A DNA stretch of 64,000 bases from Candidatus Eiseniibacteriota bacterium. GTDB taxonomy: Bacteria; Eisenbacteria; RBG-16-71-46. The notes beneath the pieces were generated by a model that saw only the letters and a list, made by a program, of their open reading frames with translations, did not search any database and was not told the DNA's origin. Shown piece after piece: positions 6,322-64,000 of the stretch; position 1 is the first letter of the stretch; every line of letters begins with the position of its first letter. The position numbers and the translations under genes were made by a program. The DNA lies in assembly GCA_013140805.1 (NCBI GenBank), contig JABFRW010000055.1, positions 4,102 to 68,101 of the forward strand, written 5' to 3'.

Positions 6322-6383
6322 TCCCGGCAAAGTGCCCGAGCCGGCGATGCGGCGCAAGGCGTTGCGCCCCTTGGGGCCGCCGG

Positions 6384-7139: not shown

Positions 7140-7445
7140 CGTCCAGGCTTCGAAGCGTCGCGTGTTTCATGCGGTCCCAACTCTACTCCTCTGACCACCT
7201 GCACCTCTCGTCTGTTACGACCCTGTCGGCGATCCTTACAAGTCCATGGAGATTCCTGCTCATGCATTCGAACGCTCGCTCGGTGGCGGGTACGTAGCCG
7301 CCTCGTGTTGCGCGGGTTTGGTGTTACGAGGCGGGCGGGCACACCAGTTGCTCAACCAGGTGGGATTCGTTTGCTCGCAGGGCCGACCAATCAGGGGGAG
7401 ATCGTGCTTTCGACCGGGAGGACGCCGGAGCAGCCGTCGTTCGAA

Positions 7446-10355: not shown

Positions 10356-10366
10356 ACCTCGCGCGG

Positions 10367-10398
10367 CACCCGGAGCGAAGTGACGATCGCTTCGGGTG
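10367..10398. terminator. Hairpin between convergent genes (11-bp stem with one G-U pair, 10-nt loop); possible bidirectional terminator
   Basis: cacccggagcg-aagtgacgat-cgcttcgggtg lies between the FG-GAP gene stop (10355) and the pyrF stop (10414). No strong U-tract follows on either strand. Confidence 0.3.
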
Positions 10399-10413
10399 TG
10401 CGCCGCGGGGCGA

Positions 10414-50026: not shown

Positions 50027-50832
50027 TCCTGCCCCATCCAGCGGGGCTTGCGCTTCTCGAAGAACGCGGCGAGGCCGTCTTTCGCTTCGGCACCCGAGCG
50101 CACTTCGGCGAGCGTGCGAGGCAGTGCCGCGCGGTATTCCTCCCACGACGAGTCCGCCCACAGCTCGAGCAGCATCTTGATTCGCTTCTGCGCGCCGGGG
50201 CCGCCTTTCAGCAGCTCGCCGACCCGTTCGTCGACACGAGCGTCGAGTTCGGCCAACGGGACCAAGTAGTTGACGAGTCCCAGGCGCAGCGCGGTCGCGG
50301 CATCGAAGCGTTCACCGGTCAGCATCAGCTCGCGCGCGATGCGATCGCCCAGGCGTCGAATGACGTAGGGGCTGATGATCCCGGGCAGGATACCGAGCCG
50401 CACTTCGGTGAGTCCGAACTTCGCATCGTCACTCGCCACCACGATGTCGCATGCGCACACGAAGCCGACGCCGCCGCCATACACGCCACCATGGACGCGC
50501 CCCACTACCGGCTTGGGGAAGTCTGCGAGTGCTGCAAAGGTGCCGGCGAGCTTCTCGGCCTCGGCGAGATTCTGGTCGAAGCTCGCGTCGGCCGACGCCT
50601 TCATCGCGCCGATGTCGGCGCCGGCGCAGAACGACGGCCCGCGGCCGCCGAGCACCACGACGCGGACCTCGTCATCGTGCTCCAGGTCGTGCACGAGCTT
50701 CGCCAGCTCGGCGCCCACTTCGGGCGACAGGGCGTTGTGGAGTTCGGGCCGGTTGAACCACACCCGGGCGACCGGGCCCTTGCGTTCGACTTCCACCAGT
50801 GACATCGGGGCTCCTCGCGGACGACGCAGCAT
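50023..50832 (-). CDS. Enoyl-CoA hydratase/isomerase (crotonase) family, methylglutaconyl-CoA-hydratase-like
   Basis: ...VWFNRPELHNALS...VVVLGGRGPSFCAGADI...GRVHGGVYGGGVGFVCACDIVVASDDAKFGLTEVRLGILPG. Stop overlaps the GTG start of the carboxylase gene. Confidence 0.85.
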   Translation of the reverse strand: MLRRPRGAPMSLVEVERKGPVARVWFNRPELHNALSPEVGAELAKLVHDLEHDDEVRVVVLGGRGPSFCAGADIGAMKASADASFDQNLAEAEKLAGTFAALADFPKPVVGRVHGGVYGGGVGFVCACDIVVASDDAKFGLTEVRLGILPGIISPYVIRRLGDRIARELMLTGERFDAATALRLGLVNYLVPLAELDARVDERVGELLKGGPGAQKRIKMLLELWADSSWEEYRAALPRTLAEVRSGAEAKDGLAAFFEKRKPRWMGQE

Positions 50833-50835
50833 AGA

Positions 50836-51714
50836 TCAGCGCCCGCCGTTCTCCACGCGCACGCACTGCTCGAGCACGTTTCCGGCGACTTCCATACGGT
50901 AGTCGCTCTCGGAACGGATGTCGTCGATCGGTGTGAGGTCGCGCGCCAGCGCCGTGCGAGCGGCCGCGATGTCGGCGGCGCGACCGCGAGTCCCGAGCAG
51001 CGCCTGCTCGGCGGCACGCGCACGCTTCGGAACCGGCGCCATGCTGCCGTAGGCGATCCGCACGTGGTCGAACGCACCATTGCGACCGCGCCGCAGCAAC
51101 GTTGCGACCACGACCTTGGAGATACTCTGGGCGCGCCGCGTGCCGACCTTGCGAAAGAACGCACGCGCGCGTGGTGGCGACCATGGAATGATGACCGCGA
51201 CGATCAACTCGTCCGCCGCCAGCGCGAGCCGGCGATAGCCGAGGTAGAAGTCGTCGAGCGCCAGCGTACGGTCGCCACGAACCGAGCGCACCTGCACCAG
51301 CGCGTCGTGCGCGAGCAGCACCGGGAGCGAGTCGCCGGCCGGTGAGGCGTTCGCGATGTTGCCGGCGATCGTCGCGCGTTCCTGAATCTGCCACGCTCCG
51401 ACTTCACGCGCTGCGGCTGCCAGCGATGGCAATCGGCGCCGGATCTCGCGATGCTCGCGGAGCTGTCGGAAGGTCGCGAGCGCGCCGATCGTGACCGCCG
51501 CGCGTCCCACCCGCACACCACGCAGCCCGCGCAGCGACGACAGGTCGAGGTAGCGCCGCGCTTCGAGCGTGCCGGCGTTCAGATAGACGAACAGGTCGGT
51601 GCCGCCCGCGAGCGGCAGCGGTCGCAGCTCGGGGTCGTCGACAGCGAGCGACTGCAGGGCGTGATCGAGATCGCGCGGGCGAACGACTTCGAGCTGCGAG
51701 AGCGGCGCTTTCAC
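50836..51714 (-). CDS. Xanthine dehydrogenase family FAD-binding (medium) subunit
   Basis: ...LAGGTDLFVYLNAGTLEARRYLDLSSL...ATIAGNIANASPAGDSLPVLLAHDALV... (FAD_binding_5 plus CO-dehydrogenase flavoprotein C-domain). GTG at 51714 overlaps the 2Fe-2S subunit stop (GTGA). Confidence 0.8.
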   Translation of the reverse strand: MKAPLSQLEVVRPRDLDHALQSLAVDDPELRPLPLAGGTDLFVYLNAGTLEARRYLDLSSLRGLRGVRVGRAAVTIGALATFRQLREHREIRRRLPSLAAAAREVGAWQIQERATIAGNIANASPAGDSLPVLLAHDALVQVRSVRGDRTLALDDFYLGYRRLALAADELIVAVIIPWSPPRARAFFRKVGTRRAQSISKVVVATLLRRGRNGAFDHVRIAYGSMAPVPKRARAAEQALLGTRGRAADIAAARTALARDLTPIDDIRSESDYRMEVAGNVLEQCVRVENGGR

Positions 51715-52304
51715 CGCACACGGCTCTTGCGACGAGCGGGCGATACCTTGCGCGCAGGCTTCGCGCTTGCGGGCGTCGCGCGTGCGGGCTTCGCCGTCTT
51801 GAGCGTGGCGGCGGCACGCACCGCGTCGATGATCTTTTCGTAGCCGGTGCAGCGGCACAGATTGCCGGCCAGTGCTTCGCGCACCTGATCGGCGCTCGGC
51901 ACGCGTCCCTTCGATTGGGCGAGCAGTGCGGAGGCGCTCACCAGCATGCCGGGCGTGCAGATGCCGCACTGAGCGCCACCCATGGTGACGAACGCCTGCT
52001 GGAGTGCCGTGAGCCTGGGCCCCTTCGCGAGGCCTTCGACCGTGACGATCCTGGCCCCCTGGCACTGGACCGCCGGCACCAGACACGAGTTCACCGGCGC
52101 GCCGTTGAGCAGCACGCTGCACGCACCGCACTCGCCTTCGCCGCAACCTTCCTTGCTGCCAGTAAGCGCCAGGTCTTCGCGCAGCACGTCGAGCAGGCGC
52201 TTCATGGGTGGCACGTTCACTCGGCGCGAGCGCCCGTTGACGGTGAAGGTGAGGGTCGTGCGCGGCGCGCCGGCCACGGGCCTGGTGCCGCGAGGCGGAG
52301 TCAC
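51711..52304 (-). CDS. (2Fe-2S)-binding small subunit of the xanthine dehydrogenase family
   Basis: LTFTVNGRSRRVNVPPMKRLLDVLREDLALTGSKEGCGEGECGACSV...QCGICTPGM...NLCRCTGY, both [2Fe-2S] cysteine clusters. Confidence 0.9.
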   Translation of the reverse strand: MTPPRGTRPVAGAPRTTLTFTVNGRSRRVNVPPMKRLLDVLREDLALTGSKEGCGEGECGACSVLLNGAPVNSCLVPAVQCQGARIVTVEGLAKGPRLTALQQAFVTMGGAQCGICTPGMLVSASALLAQSKGRVPSADQVREALAGNLCRCTGYEKIIDAVRAAATLKTAKPARATPASAKPARKVSPARRKSRVR

Positions 52305-54616
52305 TTCACGCGCTCCGTGGCTCGCAGCGCGCGCAGCACCCGCTCGGGGGTCGCCGGAATCTCATCGAGCCACACGCCGGTCGCGTGCGCGATCGCAGCC
52401 AGCACTGCCGGCGCCGGCCCGTCCATCGGCATCTCGCCGACGCCCTTGGCGCCTTGCGGTCCGTGCGAGTACGGATTCTCGACCAGCAGCGTGTGGATGG
52501 GCGGCGCGTCCATCGAAGTCGGAATGATGTAGTTCGTGAGCTGGTGATTCCACACCCGGCCGTCGCGCCACCGCACTTCCTCGGTCAATGCCCAGCCGAG
52601 TGCTTGCAGTGTTCCGCCCTCGATCTGCCCTTCGCAGAGCACCGGATGGATCGCCTTTCCGATGTCCTGGGCGGTGACCACGTTCAGCACCTGGACCTCT
52701 CCGGTGTCGAGATCGACCTCGACCTCGACACTGCACGCTGCGTAGCCGAACACGCCATACGCGTCGCCGGTGTAGTTCTCGTCGCTCCAGCGGATCTTGG
52801 GGGGCTTCAAGTACTCCTCTTCGACGCGCAGCGCGCCGTGCGCGGTGAGGTGTCGTTTCGCCGCGCGGCGAAAGCCCTCGTCGCCGGCGTAGTCGCCGAG
52901 CTTCGAGCGCATCCCGCGTGCGCAACGCTCCACCAACCCACCCACCACCATGAGCGTGCGCGAGGCGACCGTCGGTCCACTGTCGGGCACCCTCGCAGTG
53001 TCGGGGTTCTCGATCACCACCAGTTGCGGACTCACGCCGAGCGCGTCGGCCGCGAACTGCGCGAAGATCGTATTGGTGCCCTGACCGATCTCGGTGCTTC
53101 CCGCCAGCACGCGCGGTCGTCCGTCCGCCGTCAGATCCATCGCGGCGCGCGAGGCGAGCCTCACCTCGCCGCTGCCGGTGAAGCCGGCGCCGTGATAGAC
53201 GAGCGACATCCCGATGCCGCGACGCAAGCGACGACTCTTTGCCCCGCGACGCTCCGCTCGCGCCGCCGCGGCGTTGGCACGCGGGAAGTCGCGACGCTTG
53301 GCCTTCCAGCCGGCGTGTGCCGCAGTCTGCTCGAGCACCTCGTGAGCACTCACGCTCTCTTCGAGCACCTGGCCGGTCGGTGTGACGTCTCCGATCACCA
53401 CCGCGTTTCGGCGACGCAGCTCGACCGGATCGAGCGAGAGTCGCTCGGCGATCGCATCCAGGTGTCGCTCCATCGCGAACTCGGTCTGCGGCGCGCCGAA
53501 GCCACGGAACGCACCGTTCGGGGGCGTGTTGGTTGCAACCGCGCGCGCGCGGATCCGGATCGCCGGGTGACGGTAAGGACCGCCAGCGTGAATGGCACCA
53601 CGCGACAACACCACCGGCGAGAGCGTCACGTAGGCACCGCCATCCATCACCACGTCCATGTCGGTACCGAGCAACCGGCCGTCGCTCGCGACCGCGGTGC
53701 GACAGCGGATCACGGCCGGGTGCCGCTTGGTGGTCGCCGCGATGTCTTCGAGGCGGTCGTAGACGATCTTGACCGGACGCCCGCTCTTCCACGCCAGCAA
53801 CGAGGCGTGCGCCGCGATGATGCTCGGGTACTCCTCCTTGCCGCCGAATCCGCCGCCCGTGACGGTCTGCGCGACGCGCACCTGATCACCGGCGAGTGCG
53901 AACGCGCGGCACAGCGCCTTGTGCACGTAGTAGGGGCACTGAAGCGAGCCGCGCACGTAGAGCCCGCCATCCGGCAGGCGCTCGGCGAGCATCGCGTTGT
54001 TCTCGATGTAGAGCTGCTCCTGATGACCGCAGCGGTACGTGCCTTCGACCACGATCGCGCCGGGTGTGCGGAACGCAGCATCGAGATCACCGCGCGCGAT
54101 CACGATCTCCTTGAATACGTTGTCGTCGCCAAAGATCACGTGCTTGCGCGCGAGCGAGTCCTCCACCGTGAGCACCGGCTCCAGCGGTTCGTATTCGATC
54201 GACACCGCGCGCAACGCTGCCTCCACGCGCTCGGCACTCTCGTGCGCGAGCAGCAGTATCGGCTCCTCGGCGTGCCTCACCTCGTCCACGACCAGCAGCG
54301 GCTGATCGTCCACGATCAGCGCGACCAGGTTCTCACCCGGAATGTCGCGCCAGTCGGCGACCGTGACACCGCTCCAGTCGAACGCGGGATCGAGCGTGAT
54401 CTTCTTGGTTCGTCCGCGAGCGATCGTGGAGCGCACGGTGCGCCCGTGCAGCGCTCCCGGCGCGGCAACGTCGTCCAGGTAGAGCGCCCGGCCGGTGACC
54501 TTCTCGTAGGCTTCGAGCTTGGGGATCGAGGTGCCGATGGAGCGCGTCGCACCGGACTCAGACGAGCGACGGGGCAATGGGCGAGAGCGAGAAGCGGCCG
54601 GAGCGGTGCGGGGCAT
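52301..54616 (-). CDS. Molybdopterin-binding large subunit of the xanthine dehydrogenase / aldehyde oxidase family
   Basis: 771 aa; N-terminal a/b-hammerhead (KLEAYEKVTGRALYLDDV) and molybdopterin-binding domains (...GGGFGGKEEY...). The three subunits are translationally coupled in L-S-M order. Confidence 0.85.
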   Translation of the reverse strand: MPRTAPAASRSRPLPRRSSESGATRSIGTSIPKLEAYEKVTGRALYLDDVAAPGALHGRTVRSTIARGRTKKITLDPAFDWSGVTVADWRDIPGENLVALIVDDQPLLVVDEVRHAEEPILLLAHESAERVEAALRAVSIEYEPLEPVLTVEDSLARKHVIFGDDNVFKEIVIARGDLDAAFRTPGAIVVEGTYRCGHQEQLYIENNAMLAERLPDGGLYVRGSLQCPYYVHKALCRAFALAGDQVRVAQTVTGGGFGGKEEYPSIIAAHASLLAWKSGRPVKIVYDRLEDIAATTKRHPAVIRCRTAVASDGRLLGTDMDVVMDGGAYVTLSPVVLSRGAIHAGGPYRHPAIRIRARAVATNTPPNGAFRGFGAPQTEFAMERHLDAIAERLSLDPVELRRRNAVVIGDVTPTGQVLEESVSAHEVLEQTAAHAGWKAKRRDFPRANAAAARAERRGAKSRRLRRGIGMSLVYHGAGFTGSGEVRLASRAAMDLTADGRPRVLAGSTEIGQGTNTIFAQFAADALGVSPQLVVIENPDTARVPDSGPTVASRTLMVVGGLVERCARGMRSKLGDYAGDEGFRRAAKRHLTAHGALRVEEEYLKPPKIRWSDENYTGDAYGVFGYAACSVEVEVDLDTGEVQVLNVVTAQDIGKAIHPVLCEGQIEGGTLQALGWALTEEVRWRDGRVWNHQLTNYIIPTSMDAPPIHTLLVENPYSHGPQGAKGVGEMPMDGPAPAVLAAIAHATGVWLDEIPATPERVLRALRATERVK

Positions 54617-55346: not shown

Positions 55347-57230
55347 ATGCGATGCCTCCTGTGTTTCACCGTCGTTTCCATGCCGCTGCTCCTGTCGATG
55401 CCCGCAAGCGCGAAGCGTGCTCCCCGGATCGAATCGCCATTCTGGGCGAACGCGCATCCACTCGGAGTCCCTGGCGCAGGTCCGATCGAGTTCCATGAAC
55501 AGACCGAAGGCTTGGGCTTCGTGCGGCTGCATGTCGATATCGACTCTGCTCGGGCGGCGAGGCTGAACGCCGCTGGGCCCTGGGAATACTGCTTTCAGTA
55601 CTGGTTCCGGTCCGAGTGCGCGACTCCGAACTCGGACCCCCGCCCCGCGGCGTCACGCTTCCGAATTCCGTACCACGGAGACAACGAGCCCATCTGGGAG
55701 CAGTTGTTCGACTCGCGGTCGCCCGAAGAGATGATCGTGAGCGAGGGCTACGACCTCGTCGCCGGCACGGTGCTCGAGTCCGACTCGATCGGGGTGAATC
55801 GCCACCCGCCGGGTTGCCGAGTTCGGGTAGACGAAGTCTTCAACGGAGAAGTTCGCCCGGGCCGGGAACTGCGAGTGCGCTGGCGCCCGACGCCACTCTT
55901 CCTGCTGTGTGGCACCGGAGAGGATGCCCACGTCGCGCAGTGGGGACGCACCGCGCTCCCCGGCCCGGTTGTCGGCGCGCGATGGATCTCTGCGGGCGTG
56001 CGGTCGGCGAATGGTCAGGAGTGGATCAGCTTTGAACGCCTCCGCTGGATGCACGCGGACTCGCTACGTGACTACTTCCGGCAGGAGTCGAGTTCCTGGA
56101 CACGCGCGCTTCGAAGAATGCGCAGGGAGTTCGATGACTTGCTCGGCCCCGGAATCCGACAGCTACGACGGGACCACGCCGAGCGGGCCGCGCAGGCGGT
56201 CGAAGAGGAACGGAGGTGGCTCGACACGGCCGAACATCTCGCGGCAGATGCGGATCTGCGGAGGTTGTCGCTCGCTGCGGACCAAATTGCGATCGGAGAG
56301 TTGACCCTGCCGGACTTTCCGACTCGACGGGACGCGGTTCTGCGCGTGACCGAGCATCTCGCAGGCTTTCGGGCGGTCGAAGCGGAGTCGACGCTGCAGC
56401 TGTTCGCCGCGCAACGCGAGGACTCGGTGGTCTCCTTCTGGAGTCGCCGACCCCCGGACTTGCGCCCCGGGCCCGATTCGGGCCGACCCGTCCGTTGCAT
56501 CGCGTTTCTGTGCCGATCGCTGATGCCGGTGTGGGCCGGCGAGCCGCGGCCTGCCTACCGATTGGTCGACGGCAGGAGTGGATTGCTGTTGGCCGACGCG
56601 GAAACGGTTCAGCGACTTCGACGGATCCTGAAGTCGGCGCGAACGGCTTCGGGAGTACGCCGCGAAGTCCGGCCGCAAGTCCTTGGCACGGGTTCGACGA
56701 TCGCCGACTCGGAGCTCGGAAGCGTCGCGATCAAGTTCACGCCGCTGAACGATCCGTCGAGCCCCACACGACGCGCCCGAACGCTGATCGTGACGTCGCT
56801 TCTCAAGGCGGTCGAAGGGGGAACAGGCTGGTTTCTCTCGCGGGCAGCGCCGTTCGTCAGCTATCGCAGCGACTTCTCGGTCCCCAACCGGACGTTCGGG
56901 ATCACTCATTCGGAGGTCCGCAGCCTGCTTGATTCGCTTGCAACACTGCAGGGAGTGGGTGCTCGCGGCATCGCGCCGAACTGGAATCTCAGTATCTCGG
57001 TTCGAACGGTGGCGAGCGGAAACGAAGCGGAATTCGAACTCACGCTCGACGAGGATCAGATCCCTCAGCTCGGAAGGATCTTTGCGAGAGTGCTCAGGGC
57101 GGGCCCACTTCCGCCAAGTTCTGAAGGTGCGGTGTTCACGAAAGACGTTCGGACGATCAACATCGAGGCGTGGTTGGAGTCGATCGGACACGGCGCGCTC
57201 GAAGCCTTCGCCGTGGCTCGAGCTCAATAG
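55347..57230 (+). CDS. Orphan secreted protein, 627 aa, no recognisable domain; lower-GC, atypical codon usage
   Basis: Signal peptide MRCLLCFTVVSMPLLLSMPASA. Coding periodicity is clear, but third-codon-position GC is well below that of neighbouring genes (local GC about 57-60%). The overlapping minus-strand ORF 56163..57254 looks spurious. Confidence 0.6.
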   Translation: MRCLLCFTVVSMPLLLSMPASAKRAPRIESPFWANAHPLGVPGAGPIEFHEQTEGLGFVRLHVDIDSARAARLNAAGPWEYCFQYWFRSECATPNSDPRPAASRFRIPYHGDNEPIWEQLFDSRSPEEMIVSEGYDLVAGTVLESDSIGVNRHPPGCRVRVDEVFNGEVRPGRELRVRWRPTPLFLLCGTGEDAHVAQWGRTALPGPVVGARWISAGVRSANGQEWISFERLRWMHADSLRDYFRQESSSWTRALRRMRREFDDLLGPGIRQLRRDHAERAAQAVEEERRWLDTAEHLAADADLRRLSLAADQIAIGELTLPDFPTRRDAVLRVTEHLAGFRAVEAESTLQLFAAQREDSVVSFWSRRPPDLRPGPDSGRPVRCIAFLCRSLMPVWAGEPRPAYRLVDGRSGLLLADAETVQRLRRILKSARTASGVRREVRPQVLGTGSTIADSELGSVAIKFTPLNDPSSPTRRARTLIVTSLLKAVEGGTGWFLSRAAPFVSYRSDFSVPNRTFGITHSEVRSLLDSLATLQGVGARGIAPNWNLSISVRTVASGNEAEFELTLDEDQIPQLGRIFARVLRAGPLPPSSEGAVFTKDVRTINIEAWLESIGHGALEAFAVARAQ

Positions 57231-57240
57231 TCCTTCTCCC

Positions 57241-57987
57241 CTACAACGCGACATCCCGGTTCACATCCTTGTAGTAGAGGTATCTCGACGGGGCACTCCC
57301 GGTGGCATAGAACGACTGCGGGCAGTAGGGCCCCATCCAGATGAAGTCACCCGCCTTCACCTCGCGCCATGTGTCGCCCAGGTAGTAGAGCCCCTGCCCT
57401 TCGAGCATCACGAGGCCGTGCTCCATGACGTGAGTCTCCGTCACGCCGAGTGAGAACCCGGGAGGAAACGTGAAGATGTTCATCTCCATGTCGAACGACG
57501 GTTCCACTGGCAGCAGCTTCTTCAGCAGCAGTTCGGTGAACCCGTTGAAGACCTCACCCTTCATGTCGTGCTCATTGCCGACTACTTCATGTGCCGCGAG
57601 CCCTGCGTGCGGCTGATAGCGCTTCTTGATCCACGTCACAGCCGCCGCGTCGCGCGCGCGCAGCTCGAATGAGGAGCCGGGCGCGAGGAATGCGAAGCCG
57701 CCGGGTGCGAGCGAGTGCTGGCGGCCGCCCACCGTCAGCTCGACGTTTCCCGAGATCACATAGAAGAACGCCTCGATACCGGCATCCAGAATGTGATGAC
57801 CGCCGCCCTTCGGCTGCAGATCGAGCCGGTACTGAGCGAAGCGCGCACCCATCGCGGGCGCGGTCAGGATTCGGACCGCGGTCTGCTCCCAGCCGGGCAG
57901 CGTGCTCTCGGGAATTCCGTCGGGCGGAAGGATCGCGAAGTTGCGAGCGACGACGGCGCGGCTCGTGACGAGGCCCGACTGCGGCAT
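57241..57987 (-). CDS. (S)-ureidoglycine aminohydrolase (bicupin)
   Basis: ...FAILPPDG...YVISGNVELTVGG...DMEMNIFTFPPGFSLGVTETHVMEHGLVMLEGQGLYYLGDTWREVKAGDFIWMGPYCPQSFYATG matches the UGlyAH/AllE bicupin family. ATG at 57987. Confidence 0.8.
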   Translation of the reverse strand: MPQSGLVTSRAVVARNFAILPPDGIPESTLPGWEQTAVRILTAPAMGARFAQYRLDLQPKGGGHHILDAGIEAFFYVISGNVELTVGGRQHSLAPGGFAFLAPGSSFELRARDAAAVTWIKKRYQPHAGLAAHEVVGNEHDMKGEVFNGFTELLLKKLLPVEPSFDMEMNIFTFPPGFSLGVTETHVMEHGLVMLEGQGLYYLGDTWREVKAGDFIWMGPYCPQSFYATGSAPSRYLYYKDVNRDVAL

Positions 57988-58037
57988 GACGGCTCCCCTG
58001 TTGTAGTGTGCGCGGCTCAACCGTTTGAGGAGATGCC

Positions 58038-59387
58038 ATGCGCACCGTGATTCGACCCGAGCACTCGCGCGACCTGCTCGCGCGGCTCGCCGAGGCCAAT
58101 CAGAAGTTCGCGGCAATGTATCCCGGCGACCGGCTCGACCGCCAGCCCGTGCACACCGTCTACGGCGGCGCGCAACTGTTCACCGCCGACACCACACGCA
58201 AGCTCGGAGCGGTCGCGGTTCGCACGCTCGAGGAGTACGCGCCCGACGCGGCGACGCTCGCGAGAGCGGTCGGCCTCGAAGGCGACTCGGCCTTTCAACG
58301 CACGGTCTACGAGCGCGTAAGAGCCAAGCTCGAGCACGATCCGATCGAGGACTTCCGCATCGACTTCGAGGACGGCTACGGCTTCCGTCCCGACGCCGAG
58401 GAGGACCACGACGCAGTCCGCAACGGCGAAGAAGTCGCGCGCGGCATGCAGGAGCAACTGCTGCCCGGCGCGATCGGCATTCGGATCAAGCCGTACACCG
58501 AGGAGCTGCACCTGCGATCGATTCGCACCCTCGACCTCTTCCTGAGCACCCTGCTGGCGCAAAGCGGCGGCAAGCTGCCGTCGAACTTCTGCGTGACGCT
58601 GCCGAAGATCACCTCGCCCGCTCAGGTCGAGGCGTTTGTCGGCATGCTCGCGATCATCGAACGCGAACACGGGCTCGTCGCGGGATCGATCCCGATCGAG
58701 CTGATGGTCGAGACCACGCTCAGCATCTTCGACGCCGAGCGGCGCGTGGCACTGCCGGCGCTGATCGCCGCGGCCGGCGGTCGCGTGCGCGGCGCTCACT
58801 TCGGCACCTACGACTACACCGCGAACTGCAACATCACCGCGCGCCATCAGCAGCCGCAGCATCCGGCCTGCGACTTTGCGCGCCACGTCATGCAGGTGAG
58901 TCTCGCCGGGACCGGCGTGACGCTGTCCGACGGCGCGACCACGGTGATGCCGGTCGGTCCGCACCGCGCCGCCGCCGGCCAGTCGCTGACCTCGAAGCAG
59001 CTCGACGAGAACCGCCGCGCCGTCCATCACGGCTGGCGCGTGCACTTCGACGACGTCCGCAGTTCCCTGCGCCACGCCTACTACCAGGGCTGGGATCTGA
59101 ACCCCGCGCAGCTGCCTTCGCGCTACGCCGCGGTGTTCTCGTTCTTCCTCGAGTCACGCGCCGAGGCCGCGGCACGACTGCGAGCCTTCGTCGACAAGGC
59201 GGCGCAGGCCACCCTGCTCGGGCAGGTGTTCGACGACGCAGCGACCGGCCAGGGCCTGCTCAACTTCTTCCTGCGCGGGCTGTCGTGCGGCGCGATCACC
59301 GAAGACGAAGCACTCGCGACCGGCGTGACACTCGAAGAGTTTCATGGCCGCAGCTTCGTCAAGATGCTGAAGGGCCGGGACGCCTGA
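58038..59387 (+). CDS. Unassigned 449-aa protein with DxED motif, possibly a CitE/HpcH/malate-synthase-like TIM-barrel lyase
   Basis: RIDFEDGYGF... resembles the D-x-E-D metal/substrate motif of the citrate lyase beta / malyl-CoA lyase / malate synthase superfamily. Divergent from the ureidoglycine aminohydrolase gene and preceded by a GAGGAG RBS. Family assignment is tentative. Confidence 0.45.
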   Translation: MRTVIRPEHSRDLLARLAEANQKFAAMYPGDRLDRQPVHTVYGGAQLFTADTTRKLGAVAVRTLEEYAPDAATLARAVGLEGDSAFQRTVYERVRAKLEHDPIEDFRIDFEDGYGFRPDAEEDHDAVRNGEEVARGMQEQLLPGAIGIRIKPYTEELHLRSIRTLDLFLSTLLAQSGGKLPSNFCVTLPKITSPAQVEAFVGMLAIIEREHGLVAGSIPIELMVETTLSIFDAERRVALPALIAAAGGRVRGAHFGTYDYTANCNITARHQQPQHPACDFARHVMQVSLAGTGVTLSDGATTVMPVGPHRAAAGQSLTSKQLDENRRAVHHGWRVHFDDVRSSLRHAYYQGWDLNPAQLPSRYAAVFSFFLESRAEAAARLRAFVDKAAQATLLGQVFDDAATGQGLLNFFLRGLSCGAITEDEALATGVTLEEFHGRSFVKMLKGRDA

Positions 59388-59962
59388 TGCACAAGGGCCG
59401 CCTCGAAGCGTTCAGCGACGGAGTGATCGCGATCATCATCACGATCATGGTGCTCGAGCTCAAGGTCCCGCACGTCCCGCACTTTCGCGCGATCGGCGAG
59501 TTGTGGCCGGTGCTGTTGAGCTATGTGCTGAGCTTCGTGAACGTCGGCATCTACTGGAACAACCATCACCACCTCATGCAGGCGGTGAAGCACGTCGACG
59601 GCCGCATCCTGTGGGCGAACATGCACCTGCTGTTCTGGCTCTCGCTGATGCCGTTCACCACCGCGTGGATGGGCGAGAACCACTTCGCGCTCGATCCGGT
59701 GGCGCTCTATGGCGTGGTGCTCGCGATGTCGGGGGTCGCCTACTACCTCCTGGTGCGCGCGCTGCTCACCCGTCACGGCGGCGACTCGCACCTGGCGCGG
59801 GCGATCGGCCGCGACTTCAAGGGCAAGATCTCGGTGGCCATCTATCTGGTCGCGATCCCGGCGGCATGGATCAAGCCGTGGATCGCGCTGTCGCTCTACG
59901 CGCTGGTGGCGGTCATGTGGCTGGTGCCCGACAAGCGGATCGAGCGCCTGCAGATCGACTGA
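59387..59962 (+). CDS. TMEM175/DUF1211-family membrane protein (putative K+ channel)
   Basis: MHKGRLEAFSDGVIAIIITIMVLEL... (the FSDGV signature of TMEM175) with six TM helices. Start overlaps the upstream stop (TGATG). Confidence 0.75.
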   Translation: MHKGRLEAFSDGVIAIIITIMVLELKVPHVPHFRAIGELWPVLLSYVLSFVNVGIYWNNHHHLMQAVKHVDGRILWANMHLLFWLSLMPFTTAWMGENHFALDPVALYGVVLAMSGVAYYLLVRALLTRHGGDSHLARAIGRDFKGKISVAIYLVAIPAAWIKPWIALSLYALVAVMWLVPDKRIERLQID

Positions 59963-59972
59963 GGGCGCCGGC

Positions 59973-61022
59973 TCAGCGCAGCAGTGCAGCCGCTGCATCC
60001 TCCGCTGCGTACTCGGCGCGCAGCGCGTCATCGGCTCGAAGCGGATTCGCGAGTTCCCATTCGGCCGTTCGACGTATGCCGTCTTCCCACCCGACCGGCT
60101 CGACGTATCCCAGTTCGCGGCGAATCCGCGAGCCGTCGACCGAGATGTCATGGCTGGCGTCGCCATCGAATCGAAGGTGCTCGGGAAGTGCTGCGGCCTC
60201 CGCCTCGACCACTCGCCCCGACCACCCGAGCACGCGTCCGATGCTCGTCACCCACGTCGCTTCGCTCGTGGTCTCGGCTTCCGCCACGTTGTAGGTGCGA
60301 CCCGCCGCTCGCTCGTGCGTCGCCGCGAGCGCGATCGCGTGCGCGACGTTCTCCACATAAGCGCGAGTCCATCGCCACCTCGCGAGTGCGCGATCCATGA
60401 GCAGCAGCGGGCGCCGATCGGCCATCGGCCGCACGTAGCTGAACAGCCGGCGTTGCGCATCCCCCGGACCATAGACGCGAGGCAGCCGCACCACGGCCGC
60501 TTCGAGCTCGGGCCGCGAGAACGCGACTCGCTCGACCGGTATCTTGTCGTAGTCGTCACGCCAGTGCTGTGGGTCATCCGCCGCGCGCGGCGATTCGCCA
60601 CGATACGGATAGAGCCGCTCACGCAGGGGCGAGTCCTCGGTGATCGGCAGTGATCCAGGCGGCCCGCTCTCGACGCCGAGGACCTGACCGAACGCGCGGT
60701 AGACGTCCATGCTGCTGACCAGCACCAGGCGCCGCGCGTGCCCTGCGAACGCGTCGATGACGATTTCGGCGTCGCGCTCGAGCATCAGGATCATGTCGAC
60801 CACGACATCGGGCGCGAACGCGCGGATCTGCGGCAATGCCGCGAGCAGTCCCGCCCGACCGGCGCGGCTCGTATCCGCGCACTCGATGCCGTGCACGCCC
60901 GCGGGCAGCACGTCGGGATGATTGCCGCGATGCAGCACCGCGACTTCGTGGCCGCCGCCGACCAGTGCCTTGACCACGTGCGGCCCGATGAAGCCGGTCC
61001 CGCCGACGACCAGCACTCGCAC
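59973..61022 (-). CDS. NAD-dependent epimerase/dehydratase (extended SDR) family protein
   Basis: VRVLVVGGTGFIGPHVVKAL (Rossmann GxxGxxG). GTG at 61022, 4 nt past the PuuD stop. Confidence 0.8.
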   Translation of the reverse strand: MRVLVVGGTGFIGPHVVKALVGGGHEVAVLHRGNHPDVLPAGVHGIECADTSRAGRAGLLAALPQIRAFAPDVVVDMILMLERDAEIVIDAFAGHARRLVLVSSMDVYRAFGQVLGVESGPPGSLPITEDSPLRERLYPYRGESPRAADDPQHWRDDYDKIPVERVAFSRPELEAAVVRLPRVYGPGDAQRRLFSYVRPMADRRPLLLMDRALARWRWTRAYVENVAHAIALAATHERAAGRTYNVAEAETTSEATWVTSIGRVLGWSGRVVEAEAAALPEHLRFDGDASHDISVDGSRIRRELGYVEPVGWEDGIRRTAEWELANPLRADDALRAEYAAEDAAAALLR

Positions 61023-61026
61023 GCGA

Positions 61027-62208
61027 CTACTCCCCGTGCGCGCCGTGGGCGATCCAGCGCGCGAGCAGGTCACGCTCTTGCGGCGTCATGCCGGTCTGGT
61101 TCGCGAGCGGCATGGTCTGCGTCTCGACGGCGCGCACGCGAATACGTTCCGCGAACTTCACGATGCTCGCGGGGTCGTCGAAGCTCACGCCGCCGGGCGC
61201 GGGCCCGAACGTAGGCTCGACCGGATTCGACGAGTGGCAATAGACGCAGCGCGAATGCACCACGTTCTTCACCTCGGAGAAGCTCGGCGGGGCACCACTC
61301 GCCCGGGCACCGCGTGCGCGCGCCGGTGGCGCCGTCATCACCAGCACGATGCCGAGCGAGACCGCGGTCGACGCCATCGCCCATGCGCGAGTGGCACGGC
61401 TGCCGATCATCAGATGCCGCACCGACGCCCCGAACACGATCAGAAGGCACAGCACCACCCAGTTGAGCGCGTGGCCGTAGGTGCCGGCAAAGTGATTGCT
61501 CAACATGATGAACAGCACCGGAAACGTCATGTAGCTGTTGTGGACGGAACGGCGTTTGGCGGCCCTCGAGTGTTCCTGATCGGCGGGCCGTCCGGCCCGG
61601 GTGGCCTCGAGCATCGCGGTCTGCGAAGGCAGGATCACGCCCCACACGTTCGCCACCATGATCGAGCCCATCAGCGCACCGACGTGCAGGAACGCCGCGC
61701 GACCGCTCAGCAGATGGCACATCGCGTAGGTCACGCCGCCGAGCAGCGCGAACGAGATCGCCGTTGCCGGCCAGCCGATGCGCCCGAGCGGCGAGCGCCA
61801 CAGCAGGTCGTAGACGAACCAGCCGCCGATCAGCGTCGCGACACCGATGATCACACCGGTGCGCGCGTCAATCCCCGAGACGCGAGGATCGAGCAGATAC
61901 ACACCGCCGGTCAGGTAGTAGACGACAATCAGCAGCGCCACACCCGTCATCCAGGTGATCGCGGCTTCCCACTTGAACCAGTGCAGCACCGGCGGAATCT
62001 CATTCGGGCCGAGACGCCGTCGCTCCACGTGATAGAAGCCGCCGCTGTGCACCATCCAGATTTCGCCCTCGACGCCCTCGCGAGGTTCGGCGGGTTTCTC
62101 GAGCGAGCCGTCGAGCCAGATGAAGTAGAACGAGCTGCCGATCCATGCGATTCCGGCGATCAGATGGGACCAGCGCAGCAGCAGATTGAGCCAGTCGTAC
62201 GGAGTCAC
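61027..62208 (-). CDS. puuD: Urate hydroxylase PuuD (membrane DUF989 domain + cytochrome c)
   Basis: MTPYDWLNLLLRWSHLIAGIAWIGSSFYFIWLD... with multiple TM helices and a C-terminal heme site CVYCH. Confidence 0.8.
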   Translation of the reverse strand: MTPYDWLNLLLRWSHLIAGIAWIGSSFYFIWLDGSLEKPAEPREGVEGEIWMVHSGGFYHVERRRLGPNEIPPVLHWFKWEAAITWMTGVALLIVVYYLTGGVYLLDPRVSGIDARTGVIIGVATLIGGWFVYDLLWRSPLGRIGWPATAISFALLGGVTYAMCHLLSGRAAFLHVGALMGSIMVANVWGVILPSQTAMLEATRAGRPADQEHSRAAKRRSVHNSYMTFPVLFIMLSNHFAGTYGHALNWVVLCLLIVFGASVRHLMIGSRATRAWAMASTAVSLGIVLVMTAPPARARGARASGAPPSFSEVKNVVHSRCVYCHSSNPVEPTFGPAPGGVSFDDPASIVKFAERIRVRAVETQTMPLANQTGMTPQERDLLARWIAHGAHGE

Positions 62209-62209
62209 T

Positions 62210-62551
62210 TCAGCTGCCCCGATACGTCGAATAGCCGAACGGGCTCACCAGCAGCGGCACGTGATAGTGCTGATCGGCGTCGCGCACTTCGAACACGATC
62301 GGGATCTCGCTGTAGAACGACATCATGCCGAAGCTCCGAAAGTAGTCTCCGATCACGAACGTGATGCGCCAGCTGCCGGTCGCGGGGCGCTCGCCCTCGG
62401 TCAGCAGGTCCTTGAGTCGGCCGTCGGCATCGGTGGCGCCGCGAGCCGCTTCGATCCAGTCCCCGTCGCGGTACTTGTCGAGTCGTACCTGCAGGCCGGC
62501 CGCGGGGCGACCGAGCGCCAGGTCGAGCACATGGGTCGTGATCGCGCTCAT
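62210..62551 (-). CDS. 5-hydroxyisourate hydrolase (transthyretin-like)
   Basis: MSAITTHVLDLALGRPAAGLQVRL...YHVPLLVSPFGYSTYRGS, including the C-terminal YRGS signature that distinguishes HIUase from transthyretin. Confidence 0.9.
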   Translation of the reverse strand: MSAITTHVLDLALGRPAAGLQVRLDKYRDGDWIEAARGATDADGRLKDLLTEGERPATGSWRITFVIGDYFRSFGMMSFYSEIPIVFEVRDADQHYHVPLLVSPFGYSTYRGS

Positions 62552-63063
62552 GAGGTCCCCTTTTCGATCATTTTGTCGAGCCGCAGCCGCATGATCTTGC
62601 GCTGCTCTTCGATCGCGATCGTGAATTCTTCGCTCGCCGCGTTGCCGAGCCGCATGCTCAGCATCGAGAGCATCTCGTCGGCGCTGCGCCCGGTCGCGCA
62701 CACGATGAAAAGGTAGCCGAAGCGCTGTTCGTATTCACGGTTGCCCTGTGCAAGGGCGTGCAGCGTGGCTTCGCTGGCGGCCGCGGCTCCCGCCTGCTCG
62801 GCGCCCGCCCACACGGAGGTGGTTGCGAACTTCTCGCGCAGTGCCGCGACGTCTCCGATTCGCGGGTGGTGCGTGAACGCCTCACGCCAGTCGGTCGGCG
62901 TGAGCGAGTCGGAGGCTCGATCCGACGCTTCGTGGAGCGCCTCGAGGCTTCGAAACGGGCGACCCATGCACATCATGCGCACCCAGCGCCGCGCTCCGCA
63001 GCAGCGCTCGAACTGCGCCGCCAGCTCGGCCGGCGGCAGGGCACTCAACTGTTCGAGCGTCAT
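62548..63063 (-). CDS. 2-oxo-4-hydroxy-4-carboxy-5-ureidoimidazoline (OHCU) decarboxylase
   Basis: MTLEQLSALPPAELAAQFERCCGARRWV...FTHHPRIGD...RFGYLFIVCATGRSADEML matches the UraD/PucL family. 4-bp overlap with the HIUase start. Confidence 0.85.
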   Translation of the reverse strand: MTLEQLSALPPAELAAQFERCCGARRWVRMMCMGRPFRSLEALHEASDRASDSLTPTDWREAFTHHPRIGDVAALREKFATTSVWAGAEQAGAAAASEATLHALAQGNREYEQRFGYLFIVCATGRSADEMLSMLSMRLGNAASEEFTIAIEEQRKIMRLRLDKMIEKGTS

Positions 63064-64000
63064 GCCACCTCCTTGCGCCACCGGGTCAGCAGCTCGCTCG
63101 CGAACTCGAGCCCGGCCCACAGCTCATCCGGTTCGCTGAACTCGTCCGGCGAGTGGCTGATGCCACCGTGGCTCGGCACGAACAGCAGCAGCGCCGGAAT
63201 GCCGGCACGCGCGAACTCCATGGTGTCGTGCGCCGCGCCGCTCACCATGACGCGATGGCTCACCGCGCGCTCGGTCGCAAGCTGCCGAGCGGATGCGGCC
63301 AGCGAAAGCGACAACTCGGTCGGCGCCTGTTGAGTGAGGGTCTCGAGCGTCAGCGAGAGTCCGCGCCGCGCCGCGATCGCGCGCGCGCGACGCTCGAGTT
63401 CCGCCTGCAGGGCGTCGAGGCGGGACAGCTCGGAATGGCGCACCTCGAGCCACAGTTCGCACGCACCCGGCACCACGTTGTAGAGACCGGGCGAGACCCG
63501 CGCGTTGCCGGCAGTCGCGACTGCCGGCGCACCGGCGTCTCTGGCGAGCGACTCGGTCTCGAGCACCAGTTCGGCGGCGGCCGCGAGGGCGTCGCGCCTC
63601 AGAGACATCGGAGTGGTCCCAGAGTGGCGAGCGTCACCCTCGAATCGTGCGCGTACGCGTCGGTAGCCGGCGATCCGCTCGACGACGCCGAGCAGCTCCC
63701 CGCTGGTCTCGAGAACCGGGCCCTGCTCGATATGAAGCTCGAGCTGTGCGGCTGGCCTCACCAACGGCGGAAACGGGCGCGCCCCTTCGGCCAGTGCGAC
63801 CGCGCAGCCGACCTTGCGGGCGGCTTCGAGCGCCTGGCGCCAGCTCACTCCGTCGGCGTCTTTCACCACATCGAGGACCGAGTTCTCGATCTCGCCGAGC
63901 AGCGAGCGACCGCCGAGCATGTGTCCGTCGAGCCGGCTCTGCTCTTCTTCGCAGGTCACGAAGCCGATCACCGGAAGCCCCGCGCCGCCGCGATGTTCGG
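63060..64000 (-). CDS. Allantoate amidohydrolase (M20 family), partial; N-terminus beyond the window
   Basis: C-terminal region ...HIEQGPVLE...ARFEGDARHSGTTPM...GAAHDTMEFARAGIPALLLFVPSHGGISHSPDEFS matches AllC/M20 hydrolases. 4-bp overlap with the OHCU decarboxylase start. Confidence 0.8.
   Translation of the reverse strand, partial: EHRGGAGLPVIGFVTCEEEQSRLDGHMLGGRSLLGEIENSVLDVVKDADGVSWRQALEAARKVGCAVALAEGARPFPPLVRPAAQLELHIEQGPVLETSGELLGVVERIAGYRRVRARFEGDARHSGTTPMSLRRDALAAAAELVLETESLARDAGAPAVATAGNARVSPGLYNVVPGACELWLEVRHSELSRLDALQAELERRARAIAARRGLSLTLETLTQQAPTELSLSLAASARQLATERAVSHRVMVSGAAHDTMEFARAGIPALLLFVPSHGGISHSPDEFSEPDELWAGLEFASELLTRWRKEVA

Follow-up and report, generated by a model that had tools for sequence, protein, structure and literature searches.

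The stretch of 64,000 nucleotides from Candidatus Eiseniibacteriota bacterium analyzed here (hereafter, the window) ends in an ordinary bacterial pathway of uric acid breakdown, from urate to ureidoglycolate, which includes a gene for an uncharacterized protein of the large DUF6986 family. What does this protein do, and does it belong to the pathway? The set encoded in the cluster is xanthine dehydrogenase, PuuD, 5-hydroxyisourate (HIU) hydrolase, OHCU decarboxylase (OHCUD), allantoate amidohydrolase (AAH), ureidoglycine aminohydrolase and DUF6986; the remainder of the window consists of housekeeping genes. The genes in question, with model scores in parentheses, are:

50836..52146, minus strand: xanthine-dehydrogenase-type FAD-binding subunit (PF00941, 138 bits; PF03450, 72 bits)
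51711..52304, minus strand: xanthine-dehydrogenase-type [2Fe-2S] subunit (PF01799, 97 bits; PF00111, 33 bits)
52301..54616, minus strand: xanthine-dehydrogenase-type molybdopterin subunit (PF02738, 254 bits; PF20256, 213 bits; PF01315, 66 bits)
55347..57230, plus strand: 627-aa ORF with a hydrophobic N-terminus, without family match
57241..57987, minus strand: (S)-ureidoglycine aminohydrolase, a bicupin (TIGR03214, 307 bits, cut-off 200)
58038..59387, plus strand: DUF6986 protein, 449 aa, with an RIDFEDGYGF motif (PF22484, 588.6 bits)
59387..59962, plus strand: TMEM175-family putative K+ channel, 191 aa (PF06736, 113.6 bits)
59973..61073, minus strand: SDR/NAD-dependent epimerase-like protein, final gene of the puuD operon (PF01370, 52.5 bits)
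61027..62208, minus strand: PuuD-type membrane urate oxidase/hydroxylase (PF06181, 365.5 bits)
62210..62551, minus strand: HIU hydrolase (TIGR02962, 136.6 bits, cut-off 87.45)
62548..63120, minus strand: OHCU decarboxylase (NF010372, 176.5 bits, cut-off 124; PF09349, 148 bits)
63060..64000, minus strand, 5' part beyond the window end: allantoate-amidohydrolase-type M20 amidase, AAH (TIGR01879, 236 bits, cut-off 204)

Examination of the ORFs and their Pfam and NCBIfam matches recovered, in place, every gene named in the first-pass annotation, and the three-subunit xanthine dehydrogenase (50836-54616, minus strand) is a further member of the cluster. Given that the Pfam match of the FAD-binding subunit begins at residue 151, the listed ORF is overlong, with the true start probably at about 51.7 kb; homologs of this subunit adjoin the molybdopterin subunit in 26 other DUF6986 loci. 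The true start of OHCU decarboxylase is likely the Met at 63063, from which the gene would overlap the AAH stop codon by 4 nt, and the best named models for the partial AAH protein are those of allantoate amidohydrolase (NF006771, 243 bits). The genes for ureidoglycine aminohydrolase and DUF6986 are divergently oriented, with a 50-bp spacer and a GGAG-type ribosome-binding site ahead of both starts, and the same divergent pair is present in the Eisenbacteria loci L002, L014 and L046.

No allantoinase is encoded in the window, in agreement with the initial observation that no AllB- or PuuE-type gene was visible there; a PuuE-like query produced no match in the window. The sole AllB-like ORF (19273-20844), which adjoins a PyrB-like gene, is the dihydroorotase PyrC (434 bits to PyrC models versus 210 bits to TIGR03178, cut-off 358). 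In the syntenic locus L002, the gene order on one strand is allB-AAH-OHCUD-HIUH, with allB (501.9 bits to TIGR03178) immediately upstream of AAH, the gene that is cut at base 64000 of the window. This synteny suggests that the missing allantoinase is probably an edge effect, the allB slot lying just past base 64000, in which case the cluster would not lack the enzyme as initially proposed.

The DUF6986 stop and TMEM175 start codons overlap (TGATG, 59385-59389), so that the translational coupling suggested previously is plausible. The listed GTG start of the SDR gene overlaps puuD by 47 nt, and the true start is therefore probably some 15-18 codons downstream. The 627-aa ORF matches no Pfam or NCBIfam model, and its membership in the pathway is doubtful. 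No homolog of any of these three proteins adjoins DUF6986 in the 80 other loci; all three are local passengers outside any conserved system, and the inclusion of TMEM175 and SDR in the cluster by the first-pass annotation is not upheld.

The 449-aa protein belongs to DUF6986, and its relationship to better known enzymes is remote. The second Pfam match is weak (HpcH_HpaI, 27 bits) and the only NCBIfam match is malyl-CoA lyase (20 bits); no PDB match was found by sequence, and literature searches detected no paper on DUF6986. Comparison with E. coli malate synthase A (MSA, AceB) using hhalign yielded a probability of 92% (E 5.7e-7) and paired D109/E111/D112 of DUF6986 with D117/E119/D120, R149 with R166, E225 with E250, D259 with D278, and W352 with W365. 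CitE-like enzymes and malate synthases all conserve the D-x-E-D, Arg, Glu, Asp set (PMC3832036), and W365 is listed among the residues of the malate synthase glyoxylate site (PMC10120013). The AlphaFold model, of moderate quality (pLDDT 75.8), contains a TIM barrel followed by a helical C-terminal lid; malate synthase A and CitE-like lyases are the best matches to this predicted fold, and the nearest structures all are acyl-CoA/glyoxylate enzymes. Residue conservation singles out D109/E111/D112, R149, K190, E225, H254, D259, W352 and the D399/D400 pair of the lid, which is invariant. Thus, the family match, profile comparison, structure prediction and conserved residues all bear out the original notion of a CitE/malate-synthase-like protein, and DUF6986 is a separate branch of this superfamily.

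The D-x-E-D motif, the Arg and the Mg-binding Glu/Asp can be aligned by hhalign with malate synthases A and G, the haloarchaeal malate synthase H and CitE-like malyl-CoA lyases, and the lid of DUF6986 contains a DDAAT motif similar to EDAAT, the motif that surrounds the catalytic Asp447 in E. coli MSA. However, the similarity to malate synthases is under the family thresholds; where MSA has R276, DUF6986 has a small residue (T/A/V); three histidines, His39, His254 and His275, are peculiar to DUF6986; CoA use is putative; and the genomic partners are uricolysis genes rather than isocitrate lyase or glycolate oxidase. Compared to CitE, DUF6986 appears to contain a three-helix insertion between RQPVHTVYGGA, which may be the first barrel strand although this stretch is modeled with low confidence, and the RIDFEDG strand.

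The association of DUF6986 with the ureide pathway is genuine and extends very widely. In 47 of the 80 loci from other species, two or more uricolysis genes lie within 10 kb of DUF6986, and the order PuuD-AllB-Alc-OHCUD-HIUH-DUF6986 is recurrent. Among these 80 loci, HIU hydrolase is encoded in 48, OHCU decarboxylase in 46, allantoicase in 40, AllB in about 37-41 and PuuD in 30; uricase is found in nine DUF6986 loci, a count that takes in the window set. DUF6986 belongs to urate/allantoin operons in at least 10 phyla, with lineages including Eisenbacteria, Acidobacteriota, Proteobacteria, Bacteroidota, Verrucomicrobiota, Myxococcota, Cyanobacteria and Planctomycetes, and to 11 of 22 long allantoicase-anchored metagenome loci. 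Actinobacterial homologs (34-44% identity) reside in ureide clusters of Nocardia, Tsukamurella and Rhodococcus. Most of the clusters encode all steps from urate to ureidoglycolate, and DUF6986 is their best-conserved protein (53-67% identity across phyla).

These observations direct attention to the fate of ureidoglycolate. As the first-pass annotation stated, no ureidoglycolate lyase is visible: queries with E. coli AllA, AllD, Gcl, AceB, GlcB and AceA gave no match in the window, and neither AllA and AllD nor a canonical malate synthase or Gcl was detected in any of the 80 DUF6986 loci. However, AllA is rare in related allantoicase clusters with or without DUF6986 (1 of 80), so its absence is weak evidence; half of the long allantoicase clusters encode neither. 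DUF6986 adjoins allantoicase or ureidoglycine aminohydrolase and often closes the uricolysis operon, resembling in this respect the AllA-type lyase (PF04115), a protein of about 160 aa that is unrelated to it in fold and sequence. The ureidoglycine aminohydrolase gene (UGlyAH2) overlaps allA by 4 nt in Methylobacterium and DUF6986 by 4 nt in Tsukamurella; the order puuE-uraD-alc-allA in Pseudomonas compares with DUF6986-alc-puuE-like in Rhodococcus erythropolis. Thus, the actinobacterial homologs fill operon slots held by AllA in Proteobacteria. Likewise, metagenome locus L160 has the order ALC-OHCUD-HIUH-AllA (AllA confirmed by PF04115, 200 bits), whereas loci L008, L016, L053, L073 and L080 have ALC-OHCUD-HIUH-DUF6986.

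A precedent comes from vertebrates, in which a malate synthase homolog (MSL of Danio rerio) is an (S)-ureidoglycolate lyase, UGL (PMC10120013). UGL, like DUF6986, is a malate-synthase-fold protein tied to genes of uric acid degradation (uricase and allantoicase), it converts ureidoglycolate to glyoxylate and urea, an activity that is putative in DUF6986, and both proteins are without an equivalent of MSA R276. UGL, however, is a close MSA paralog within the malate synthase orthogroup, reported only in eukaryotes, and is metal-independent with a W365M replacement (PMC10120013), whereas the bacterial DUF6986 family stands apart, at a much greater distance. The retention of W352 and both Mg ligands in its sequences counts against a UGL-like lyase.

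That retention, with the full catalytic set and the acyl-CoA/glyoxylate nature of the closest structures, suits the main rival explanation, which we consider somewhat less likely than a ureidoglycolate lyase: that DUF6986 represents a fourth malate synthase type or a CoA-dependent lyase that forms malyl-CoA. Glyoxylate and acetyl-CoA would undergo a terminal Mg2+-dependent Claisen reaction to malate or malyl-CoA, with Arg149 stabilizing the enolate and a lid Asp as the base, so that a toxic aldehyde is removed and its carbon salvaged, ureidoglycolate being cleaved elsewhere or by allantoicase. The strong conservation of DUF6986 among the cluster proteins is in line with this scheme, as is a sub-clade nested in the family (7 loci from Accumulibacter, Ketobacter, other Gammaproteobacteria and a Caldilineales MAG) in which DUF6986 is the first gene of ethylmalonyl-CoA operons (DUF6986-mcd-mch-ecm-meaB-ccr). 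In this setting one would expect reactions of acyl-CoA with glyoxylate rather than the release of urea, and the sub-clade, at about 58% identity, has 140 invariant positions in common with the ureide-linked proteins including the whole lid motif; in malyl-CoA lyases, the main role of the lid is to bind the pantetheine arm of CoA (PMC3832036). However, the near-invariant His254 is lost and His273 gained in this clade, which may therefore have changed its function. A hotdog thioesterase gene is coupled directly upstream of DUF6986 in Gordonia and Williamsia, which hints at a CoA-thioester product; in these two genera DUF6986 itself lies immediately upstream of ureABCFGD, which fits a urea-releasing enzyme. 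Malate synthases occur inside bacterial ureide clusters, namely that of Deinococcus (MS-A, an MS-A-like gene, AAH, AllB, UGlyAH and malic enzyme) and locus L160 with GlcB, so a glyoxylate-consuming role is equally natural for DUF6986. Yeast DAL7 and Streptomyces aceB1 are further malate synthases tied to ureide clusters. Nevertheless, the usual malate synthase partners, isocitrate lyase or glycolate oxidase, are beside DUF6986 in none of the 80 loci; the slots it occupies are those of AllA, not of glyoxylate assimilation genes; the Pfam MS_TIM-barrel model reaches only 13.9 bits against a cut-off of 26.4; and the hosts already own canonical malate synthases (glcB is 9 kb from DUF6986 in Gordonia p174, and Accumulibacter transcribes aceA and aceB (PMC12604563)).

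It is improbable that DUF6986 is some other metal-dependent C-C/C-N lyase or aldolase acting on a ureide-derived 2-hydroxy or 2-oxo acid, for example at an alternative allantoate- or oxalurate-level step or in an aldol reaction of glyoxylate with pyruvate. Such a role would agree with the modules of Paenarthrobacter and R. opacus, where DUF6986 is accompanied only by a PuuE-like gene and an NCS1 transporter and no allantoicase is seen. In most clusters, however, the route from urate to ureidoglycolate is already complete, and in its active site DUF6986 bears the signature of CitE/malate synthase rather than that of HpcH/HpaI aldolases. Hardly credible is the name "phosphoenolpyruvate kinase", carried in NCBI by the identical protein and several close relatives, which would imply phosphotransfer on PEP or pyruvate and no connection to ureides. 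This name, which probably echoes a superfamily label, is backed by none of the NCBIfam or Pfam models, and literature searches found no such characterized enzyme; the Pfam and NCBIfam matches are barrel-type only, neither a nucleotide-binding nor a phospho-histidine domain is detected, and the model consists of a barrel and a helical region alone. Further members are annotated as "DUF6986 family protein", "aldolase" or "citrate lyase beta subunit", and the genomic context is uricolysis, not glycolysis.

We tentatively favor the possibility that DUF6986 is a non-AllA (S)-ureidoglycolate lyase, analogous to the malate-synthase-like UGL of vertebrates. Acting after ureidoglycine aminohydrolase or allantoicase, it would convert (S)-ureidoglycolate to glyoxylate and urea, substituting for the AllA-type lyase that is absent from such clusters. 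Mg2+ and a 2-oxo/2-hydroxy acid of the glyoxylate type would be bound by the D-x-E-D motif together with Arg149, Glu225 and Asp259; the substrate carboxylate and C2-OH would chelate the metal, a base would take the hydroxyl proton, and urea would depart with acid help from a lid Asp (D399/D400) or the family-specific His254, whose catalytic roles are putative. The evidence points in the direction of the original suggestion that the protein acts on glyoxylate or ureidoglycolate, the substrate being putative, and DUF6986 probably performs the last step around glyoxylate in uricolysis.

The purine-catabolic cluster begins at 50.8 kb and continues to the right-hand edge of the window, which has a G+C content of 67%; the left part of the window, as scanned, encodes housekeeping functions (glyQ, recO, phoH, mgtE, pyrB/pyrC and others). 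The genes considered here are the following:

50836-54616, minus strand: xanthine-dehydrogenase-type enzyme, three subunits (Pfam)
55347-57230, plus strand: 627-aa ORF, flanked by the xanthine dehydrogenase and ureidoglycine aminohydrolase genes; its N-terminus resembles a signal peptide
57241-57987, minus strand: (S)-ureidoglycine aminohydrolase (UGlyAH)
58038-59387, plus strand: DUF6986 protein, 449 aa (Pfam)
59387-59962, plus strand: TMEM175-like gene (PF06736; 113.6 bits, cut-off 25), predicted channel
59973-61073, minus strand: SDR/epimerase-like gene, last gene of the AAH-OHCUD-HIUH-PuuD operon
after the SDR/epimerase-like gene, minus strand: PuuD (urate oxidase type), HIU hydrolase (HIUH), OHCU decarboxylase (OHCUD) and an allantoate-amidohydrolase-type gene (AAH), the last cut by the window end

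ORF, Pfam and NCBIfam searches of the window bore out the gene calls of the first-pass annotation, and the DUF6986 stop codon does overlap the TMEM175 start codon (TGATG) in the junction sequence. That annotation had also counted the TMEM175 channel and the SDR gene as parts of the cluster; neither recurs beside DUF6986 in other loci, and their presence here is incidental. Together with the 627-aa ORF, they were ruled out as components of the system because they adjoin DUF6986 in none of 80 loci from other species. The SDR/epimerase-like gene, which among the loci examined occurs in this genome only, ends 10 bp from the convergent TMEM175-like gene; for the 627-aa ORF, neither Pfam nor NCBIfam returned a match, and homologues are missing from the 80 related loci. 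Genes for a biotin carboxylase and an enoyl-CoA hydratase (48491-50832, minus strand) are located immediately upstream of those for xanthine dehydrogenase; this acyl-CoA carboxylase/hydratase pair is probably unconnected with purine catabolism. Taken as a whole, the cluster is ordinary.

The cluster had been described as lacking an allantoinase, and indeed neither AllB nor PuuE was found within the 64-kb window, but the gap is probably an effect of the window edge, as judged from synteny with another Eisenbacteria locus, L002. In L002, allB, AAH, OHCUD and HIUH follow each other on one strand, and the allB product scores 501.9 bits to TIGR03178 (cut-off 358); given this order and the truncation of AAH by the window end, an allantoinase is expected just past base 64000. 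The single AllB-like ORF of the window (19273-20844), which grouped with AllB allantoinases on clustering, is the dihydroorotase PyrC according to NCBIfam. The observation that the window contains no ureidoglycolate lyase stands, in that AllA is not detectable by homology search; the same holds for AllD, Gcl, malate synthase and isocitrate lyase.

The 449-aa protein is a full-length member of the DUF6986 family (PF22484; 588.6 bits, cut-off 27), with residues 17-442 matching profile positions 1-407 of 408. The family is large: it comprises more than 8000 clusters at the 90% identity level and 917 at 50% identity (E <= 1e-30), at least 579 species representatives encode a member, and it occurs in the cultivable genera Rhodococcus, Gordonia, Nocardia and Tsukamurella. 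Literature searches returned no paper on DUF6986 and no characterization of a member, and searches of the PDB with the single sequence and with a profile revealed no relative. The NCBI name of the window protein and its close relatives is "phosphoenolpyruvate kinase" and the JGI name "citrate lyase beta subunit", whereas "aldolase" and "DUF6986 family protein" are used for members from Actinobacteria; no family model supports any of these names at a score above its threshold. The kinase name finds no support, since neither a family model for it or for pyruvate kinase nor a nucleotide-binding or phosphotransfer domain was matched; the barrels of PEP enzymes are structurally no more than remotely similar to the protein, and a characterized "phosphoenolpyruvate kinase" of this kind was not found in literature searches.

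A comparison of a diverse family profile with Escherichia coli malate synthase A (AceB, MSA) using hhalign yielded a match over 350 columns (probability 92%, E 5.7e-7) which, along with the conserved residues, supports the earlier suggestion that the protein resembles CitE and malate synthases. The predicted structure is a TIM barrel (beta8/alpha8) with a C-terminal lid, as in CitE-like and malate synthase members, and DUF6986 is a new branch within this known superfamily. By family thresholds, the protein is not a canonical malate synthase: it scores 13.9 bits with the Pfam MS_TIM-barrel model (PF01274), below the cut-off of 26.4 (a few relatives reach 25-27 bits), and matches none of the NCBIfam malate synthase models. 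There is no Pfam match to the AllA family (PF04115) either.

The hhalign alignment pairs D109-F-E111-D112 with D117-F-E119-D120 of AceB, R149 with R166 (the catalytic Arg, R338 in malate synthase G, MSG), K190 with K215 and W352 with W365; E225 and D259 are matched to the Mg2+-binding E250 and D278 of MSA by one hmmsearch and by each of two independent hhalign runs. Conservation among 130 diverse representatives is nearly complete (D109, 130; E111, 128; D112, 127; R149, 130; E225, 128; D259, 127; W352, 124). In the D-x-E-D motif, the first Asp positions the catalytic Arg, and the Glu and the second Asp hold Mg-bound waters; according to Zarzycki and Kerfeld (PMC3832036), this motif, the Arg and the Glu/Asp pair are shared by all CitE-like enzymes and malate synthases. 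The equivalent of R276 of MSA is a small residue, T257. His254 is near-invariant, being present in 127 of 137 representatives and in all 40 actinobacterial members. An invariant acidic pair, D399/D400 (position 400 is Glu in actinobacterial members), belongs to an FDDAAT motif that starts a lid helix; in known members, the C-terminal lid contributes a catalytic Asp (D631 of MSG, D447 of MSA). The alignment with AceB in this region is non-significant and allows three registers, and neither hhalign in global mode nor hhalign with a single-sequence template placed the C-terminal lid. With the same non-significant alignment, the FDDAAT motif appears to resemble EDAAT around the catalytic Asp447 of MSA.

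To examine the genomic context of the family, every ORF lying up to 10 kb from DUF6986 in the 80 loci from other species was included in a clustering. Genes that recur near DUF6986 encode HIU hydrolase (in 48 loci), OHCU decarboxylase (46), allantoicase (40), AllB (about 37-41), PuuD (30) and xanthine dehydrogenase (25-27); uricase occurs in 9 loci when the window is part of the clustered set. The co-occurrence with ureide genes anticipated for the 449-aa protein thus extends to its family, with at least two uricolysis genes nearby in 47 of the 80 loci. Co-directional operons, such as PuuD-AllB-Alc-OHCUD-HIUH-DUF6986 (Alc, allantoicase), recur with shuffled gene orders in Proteobacteria, Bacteroidota and Verrucomicrobiota; the variant with AAH and UGlyAH, as in the window, is limited to Eisenbacteria (L002, L014, L046). 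In a reciprocal view anchored on allantoicase, 11 of 22 metagenome loci of at least 12 kb contain DUF6986. The actinobacterial homologues, only 34-44% identical, again reside in ureide clusters, so the family in its entirety is linked to ureide catabolism. Examples are Nocardia farcinica (OHCUD-HIUH-uricase-XDH-DUF6986-allantoicase), Tsukamurella (xdh-guaD-DUF6986, with a 4-nt overlap between DUF6986 and a "bifunctional allantoicase/ureidoglycine aminohydrolase" gene and with allB nearby) and Rhodococcus erythropolis (a three-gene operon, DUF6986-allantoicase-PuuE-like, beside an allantoin-racemase-like gene and an NCS1 transporter). The main finding is that DUF6986, a large and uncharacterized enzyme family, is conserved in the uricolysis operons of at least 10 phyla; a prior report of this association was not found in the searchable literature.

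A different arrangement is seen in Pyrinomonadaceae/Blastocatellia, where DUF6986 is followed by a gene for a secreted 558-aa M49-like (HExxH) peptidase and uricolysis genes are missing (L015, L020, L039, L043, L050, L051, L055-L057, L061, L063, L065 and L075, all from Acidobacteriota); L040 and L064 contain both the peptidase and uricolysis genes.

Both types of clusters, with allantoicase or with AAH and UGlyAH, end at (S)-ureidoglycolate, and our preferred, if tentative, reading is that DUF6986 is an (S)-ureidoglycolate lyase, an assignment to which we attach a probability somewhat short of one half. AllA and AllD were found in none of the 80 DUF6986 loci by homology search with the E. coli proteins as queries; for AllA, the search works where the gene exists (L160; 108 bits with phmmer, 200 bits with Pfam). 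Among 80 allantoicase clusters, with or without DUF6986, a single one contains AllA, and because AllA is nearly missing from this sample, a test of mutual exclusivity between AllA and DUF6986 says nothing. DUF6986 takes the place that AllA has in classical clusters: UGlyAH2 overlaps allA in Methylobacterium and DUF6986 in Tsukamurella; puuE-uraD-alc-allA of Pseudomonas and alc-allA of Acinetobacter are mirrored by DUF6986-alc-puuE of Rhodococcus; and ALC-OHCUD-HIUH-AllA of the metagenomic locus L160 corresponds to ALC-OHCUD-HIUH-DUF6986 in several other loci. In Gordonia and Williamsia, a urease operon directly follows DUF6986. There is a precedent for such a lyase in this superfamily, the (S)-ureidoglycolate lyase (UGL) of vertebrates being a malate-synthase homologue (PMC10120013). 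The eukaryotic UGL belongs to the MSA orthogroup and carries R276I and W365M along with a degenerate acetyl-CoA site (PMC10120013); DUF6986, in contrast, is not an MSA-family sequence and retains the W365 equivalent, W352, whereas its R276 equivalent is small (T257). A Mg2+/Arg site built for glyoxylate is chemically suited to expelling urea from the hydrated adduct of glyoxylate.

What remains without explanation if DUF6986 is a lyase is a clade of seven loci (L010, L018, L025, L026, L027, L029 and L078, from Accumulibacter, Ketobacter, other Gammaproteobacteria and one Caldilineales MAG) in which DUF6986, located at about 10001-11430 in most, heads ethylmalonyl-CoA operons. These encode a methylsuccinyl-CoA-dehydrogenase-like protein, mesaconyl-CoA hydratase, an ethylmalonyl-CoA-mutase-like protein, MeaB and crotonyl-CoA carboxylase/reductase (TIGR01751, 557 bits). 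The DUF6986 proteins of this clade are about 58% identical to the ureide-linked ones and share with them 140 invariant positions, including the lid motif, and the simplest reading is that both catalyze the same chemistry, on glyoxylate and an acyl-CoA. DUF6986 could be a malate synthase or a malyl-CoA-forming enzyme, a function predicted from context that we consider the main alternative, though less probable than the lyase. It would be compatible with the hotdog thioesterase gene coupled upstream of DUF6986 in Gordonia and Williamsia, and with the presence of malate synthases in ureide clusters (a Deinococcus plasmid and GlcB in L160). However, neither isocitrate lyase nor glycolate oxidase adjoins DUF6986 in any of the 80 loci (both were sought beside it, as were Gcl and canonical malate synthase, and none was found), and the hosts already own a canonical malate synthase (in part from PMC12604563). 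Moreover, all seven members of the ethylmalonyl-CoA clade have lost His254, which is replaced by Ile or Ala, and have gained a His at position 273, where other members have Leu or Met; this apparent swap could reflect a functional shift or the relocation of a catalytic His. With a synthase, the equivalence of DUF6986 and AllA slots remains unexplained.

A third reading, which we regard as improbable, combines both activities in a bifunctional, glyoxylate-channelling enzyme. (S)-ureidoglycolate would be cut on the Mg2+ site with departure of urea, and the bound glyoxylate would then condense with acetyl-CoA to malyl-CoA or malate, such that free glyoxylate would never be released. This would cover the AllA-like operon slots, the strong conservation of a CoA-type lid, the thioesterase-DUF6986-urease order of Gordonia and Williamsia (the products being malyl-CoA and urea) and the easy recruitment of the sub-clade lacking His254 into ethylmalonyl-CoA operons, with free glyoxylate as the substrate. 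Jointly, the lyase, the malate-synthase or malyl-CoA-forming enzyme and the bifunctional enzyme encompass the function with high probability.

Several of these loci show additional arrangements. In Gordonia polyisoprenivorans p174 (L085, 8504-14856), a 4HBT/PaaI thioesterase gene overlaps DUF6986, which is followed by ureABCFGD, and malate synthase G is encoded 9 kb from DUF6986; in Williamsia muralis (L179, 7561-13869), the 4HBT/PaaI thioesterase gene lies 11 bp upstream of DUF6986, again followed by ureABCFGD. Outside these two genera, thioesterases are not found among the conserved small neighbours of DUF6986. In Accumulibacter (L029, 2273-7863; also L025), the ethylmalonyl-CoA operon is accompanied by genes for mesaconyl-CoA C1-C4 isomerase (TIGR04253, 801 bits), a second mesaconyl-CoA-hydratase-like protein, a RipC/Ccl-like CitE lyase and a 2-oxoacid:ferredoxin oxidoreductase, a set that resembles the second cycle of the 3-hydroxypropionate bi-cycle. 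The metagenomic locus L160 (Ga0065721_10050349, 2763-16252), the sole allantoicase cluster of the 80 with canonical AllA (PF04115, 200 bits), lacks DUF6986 and contains a malate synthase G gene, divergent from the xanthine dehydrogenase genes, whose product scores 892 bits against E. coli GlcB. The Deinococcus actinosclerus plasmid CP029777.1 (L176, 1570-10501) carries a ureide operon with two malate synthase A genes, in the order 520-aa malate synthase A, IclR, a divergent 461-aa paralogue overlapping AAH, and then AllB, UGlyAH and NAD-malic enzyme. The 461-aa protein retains R166, E250, R276, W277, D278, W365 and D447, with segments around the region after W365 missing, and could be a second bacterial ureidoglycolate enzyme derived from malate synthase. 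On a Pseudosulfitobacter plasmid (L175, 1-12801), xdhBC-guaD-UGlyAH2 adjoins the beta-hydroxyaspartate-cycle genes bhcRABCD, which is another way of attaching glyoxylate assimilation to ureide clusters.

Cleavage of (S)-ureidoglycolate or, failing that, disposal of glyoxylate is the last step of purine-nitrogen recycling, and to our knowledge, the gene for this step largely lacks an assignment outside Proteobacteria and fungi. Assignment of DUF6986 would fill this gap when the pathway is reconstructed for soil Acidobacteriota, Bacteroidota, Verrucomicrobiota and Actinomycetota and would correct the misleading NCBI name. Should the family prove to be a synthase, it would represent a fourth class of malate synthase; should it prove to be a lyase, the malate-synthase fold would have been recruited to ureidoglycolate cleavage twice and independently, here and, in parallel, in vertebrates.
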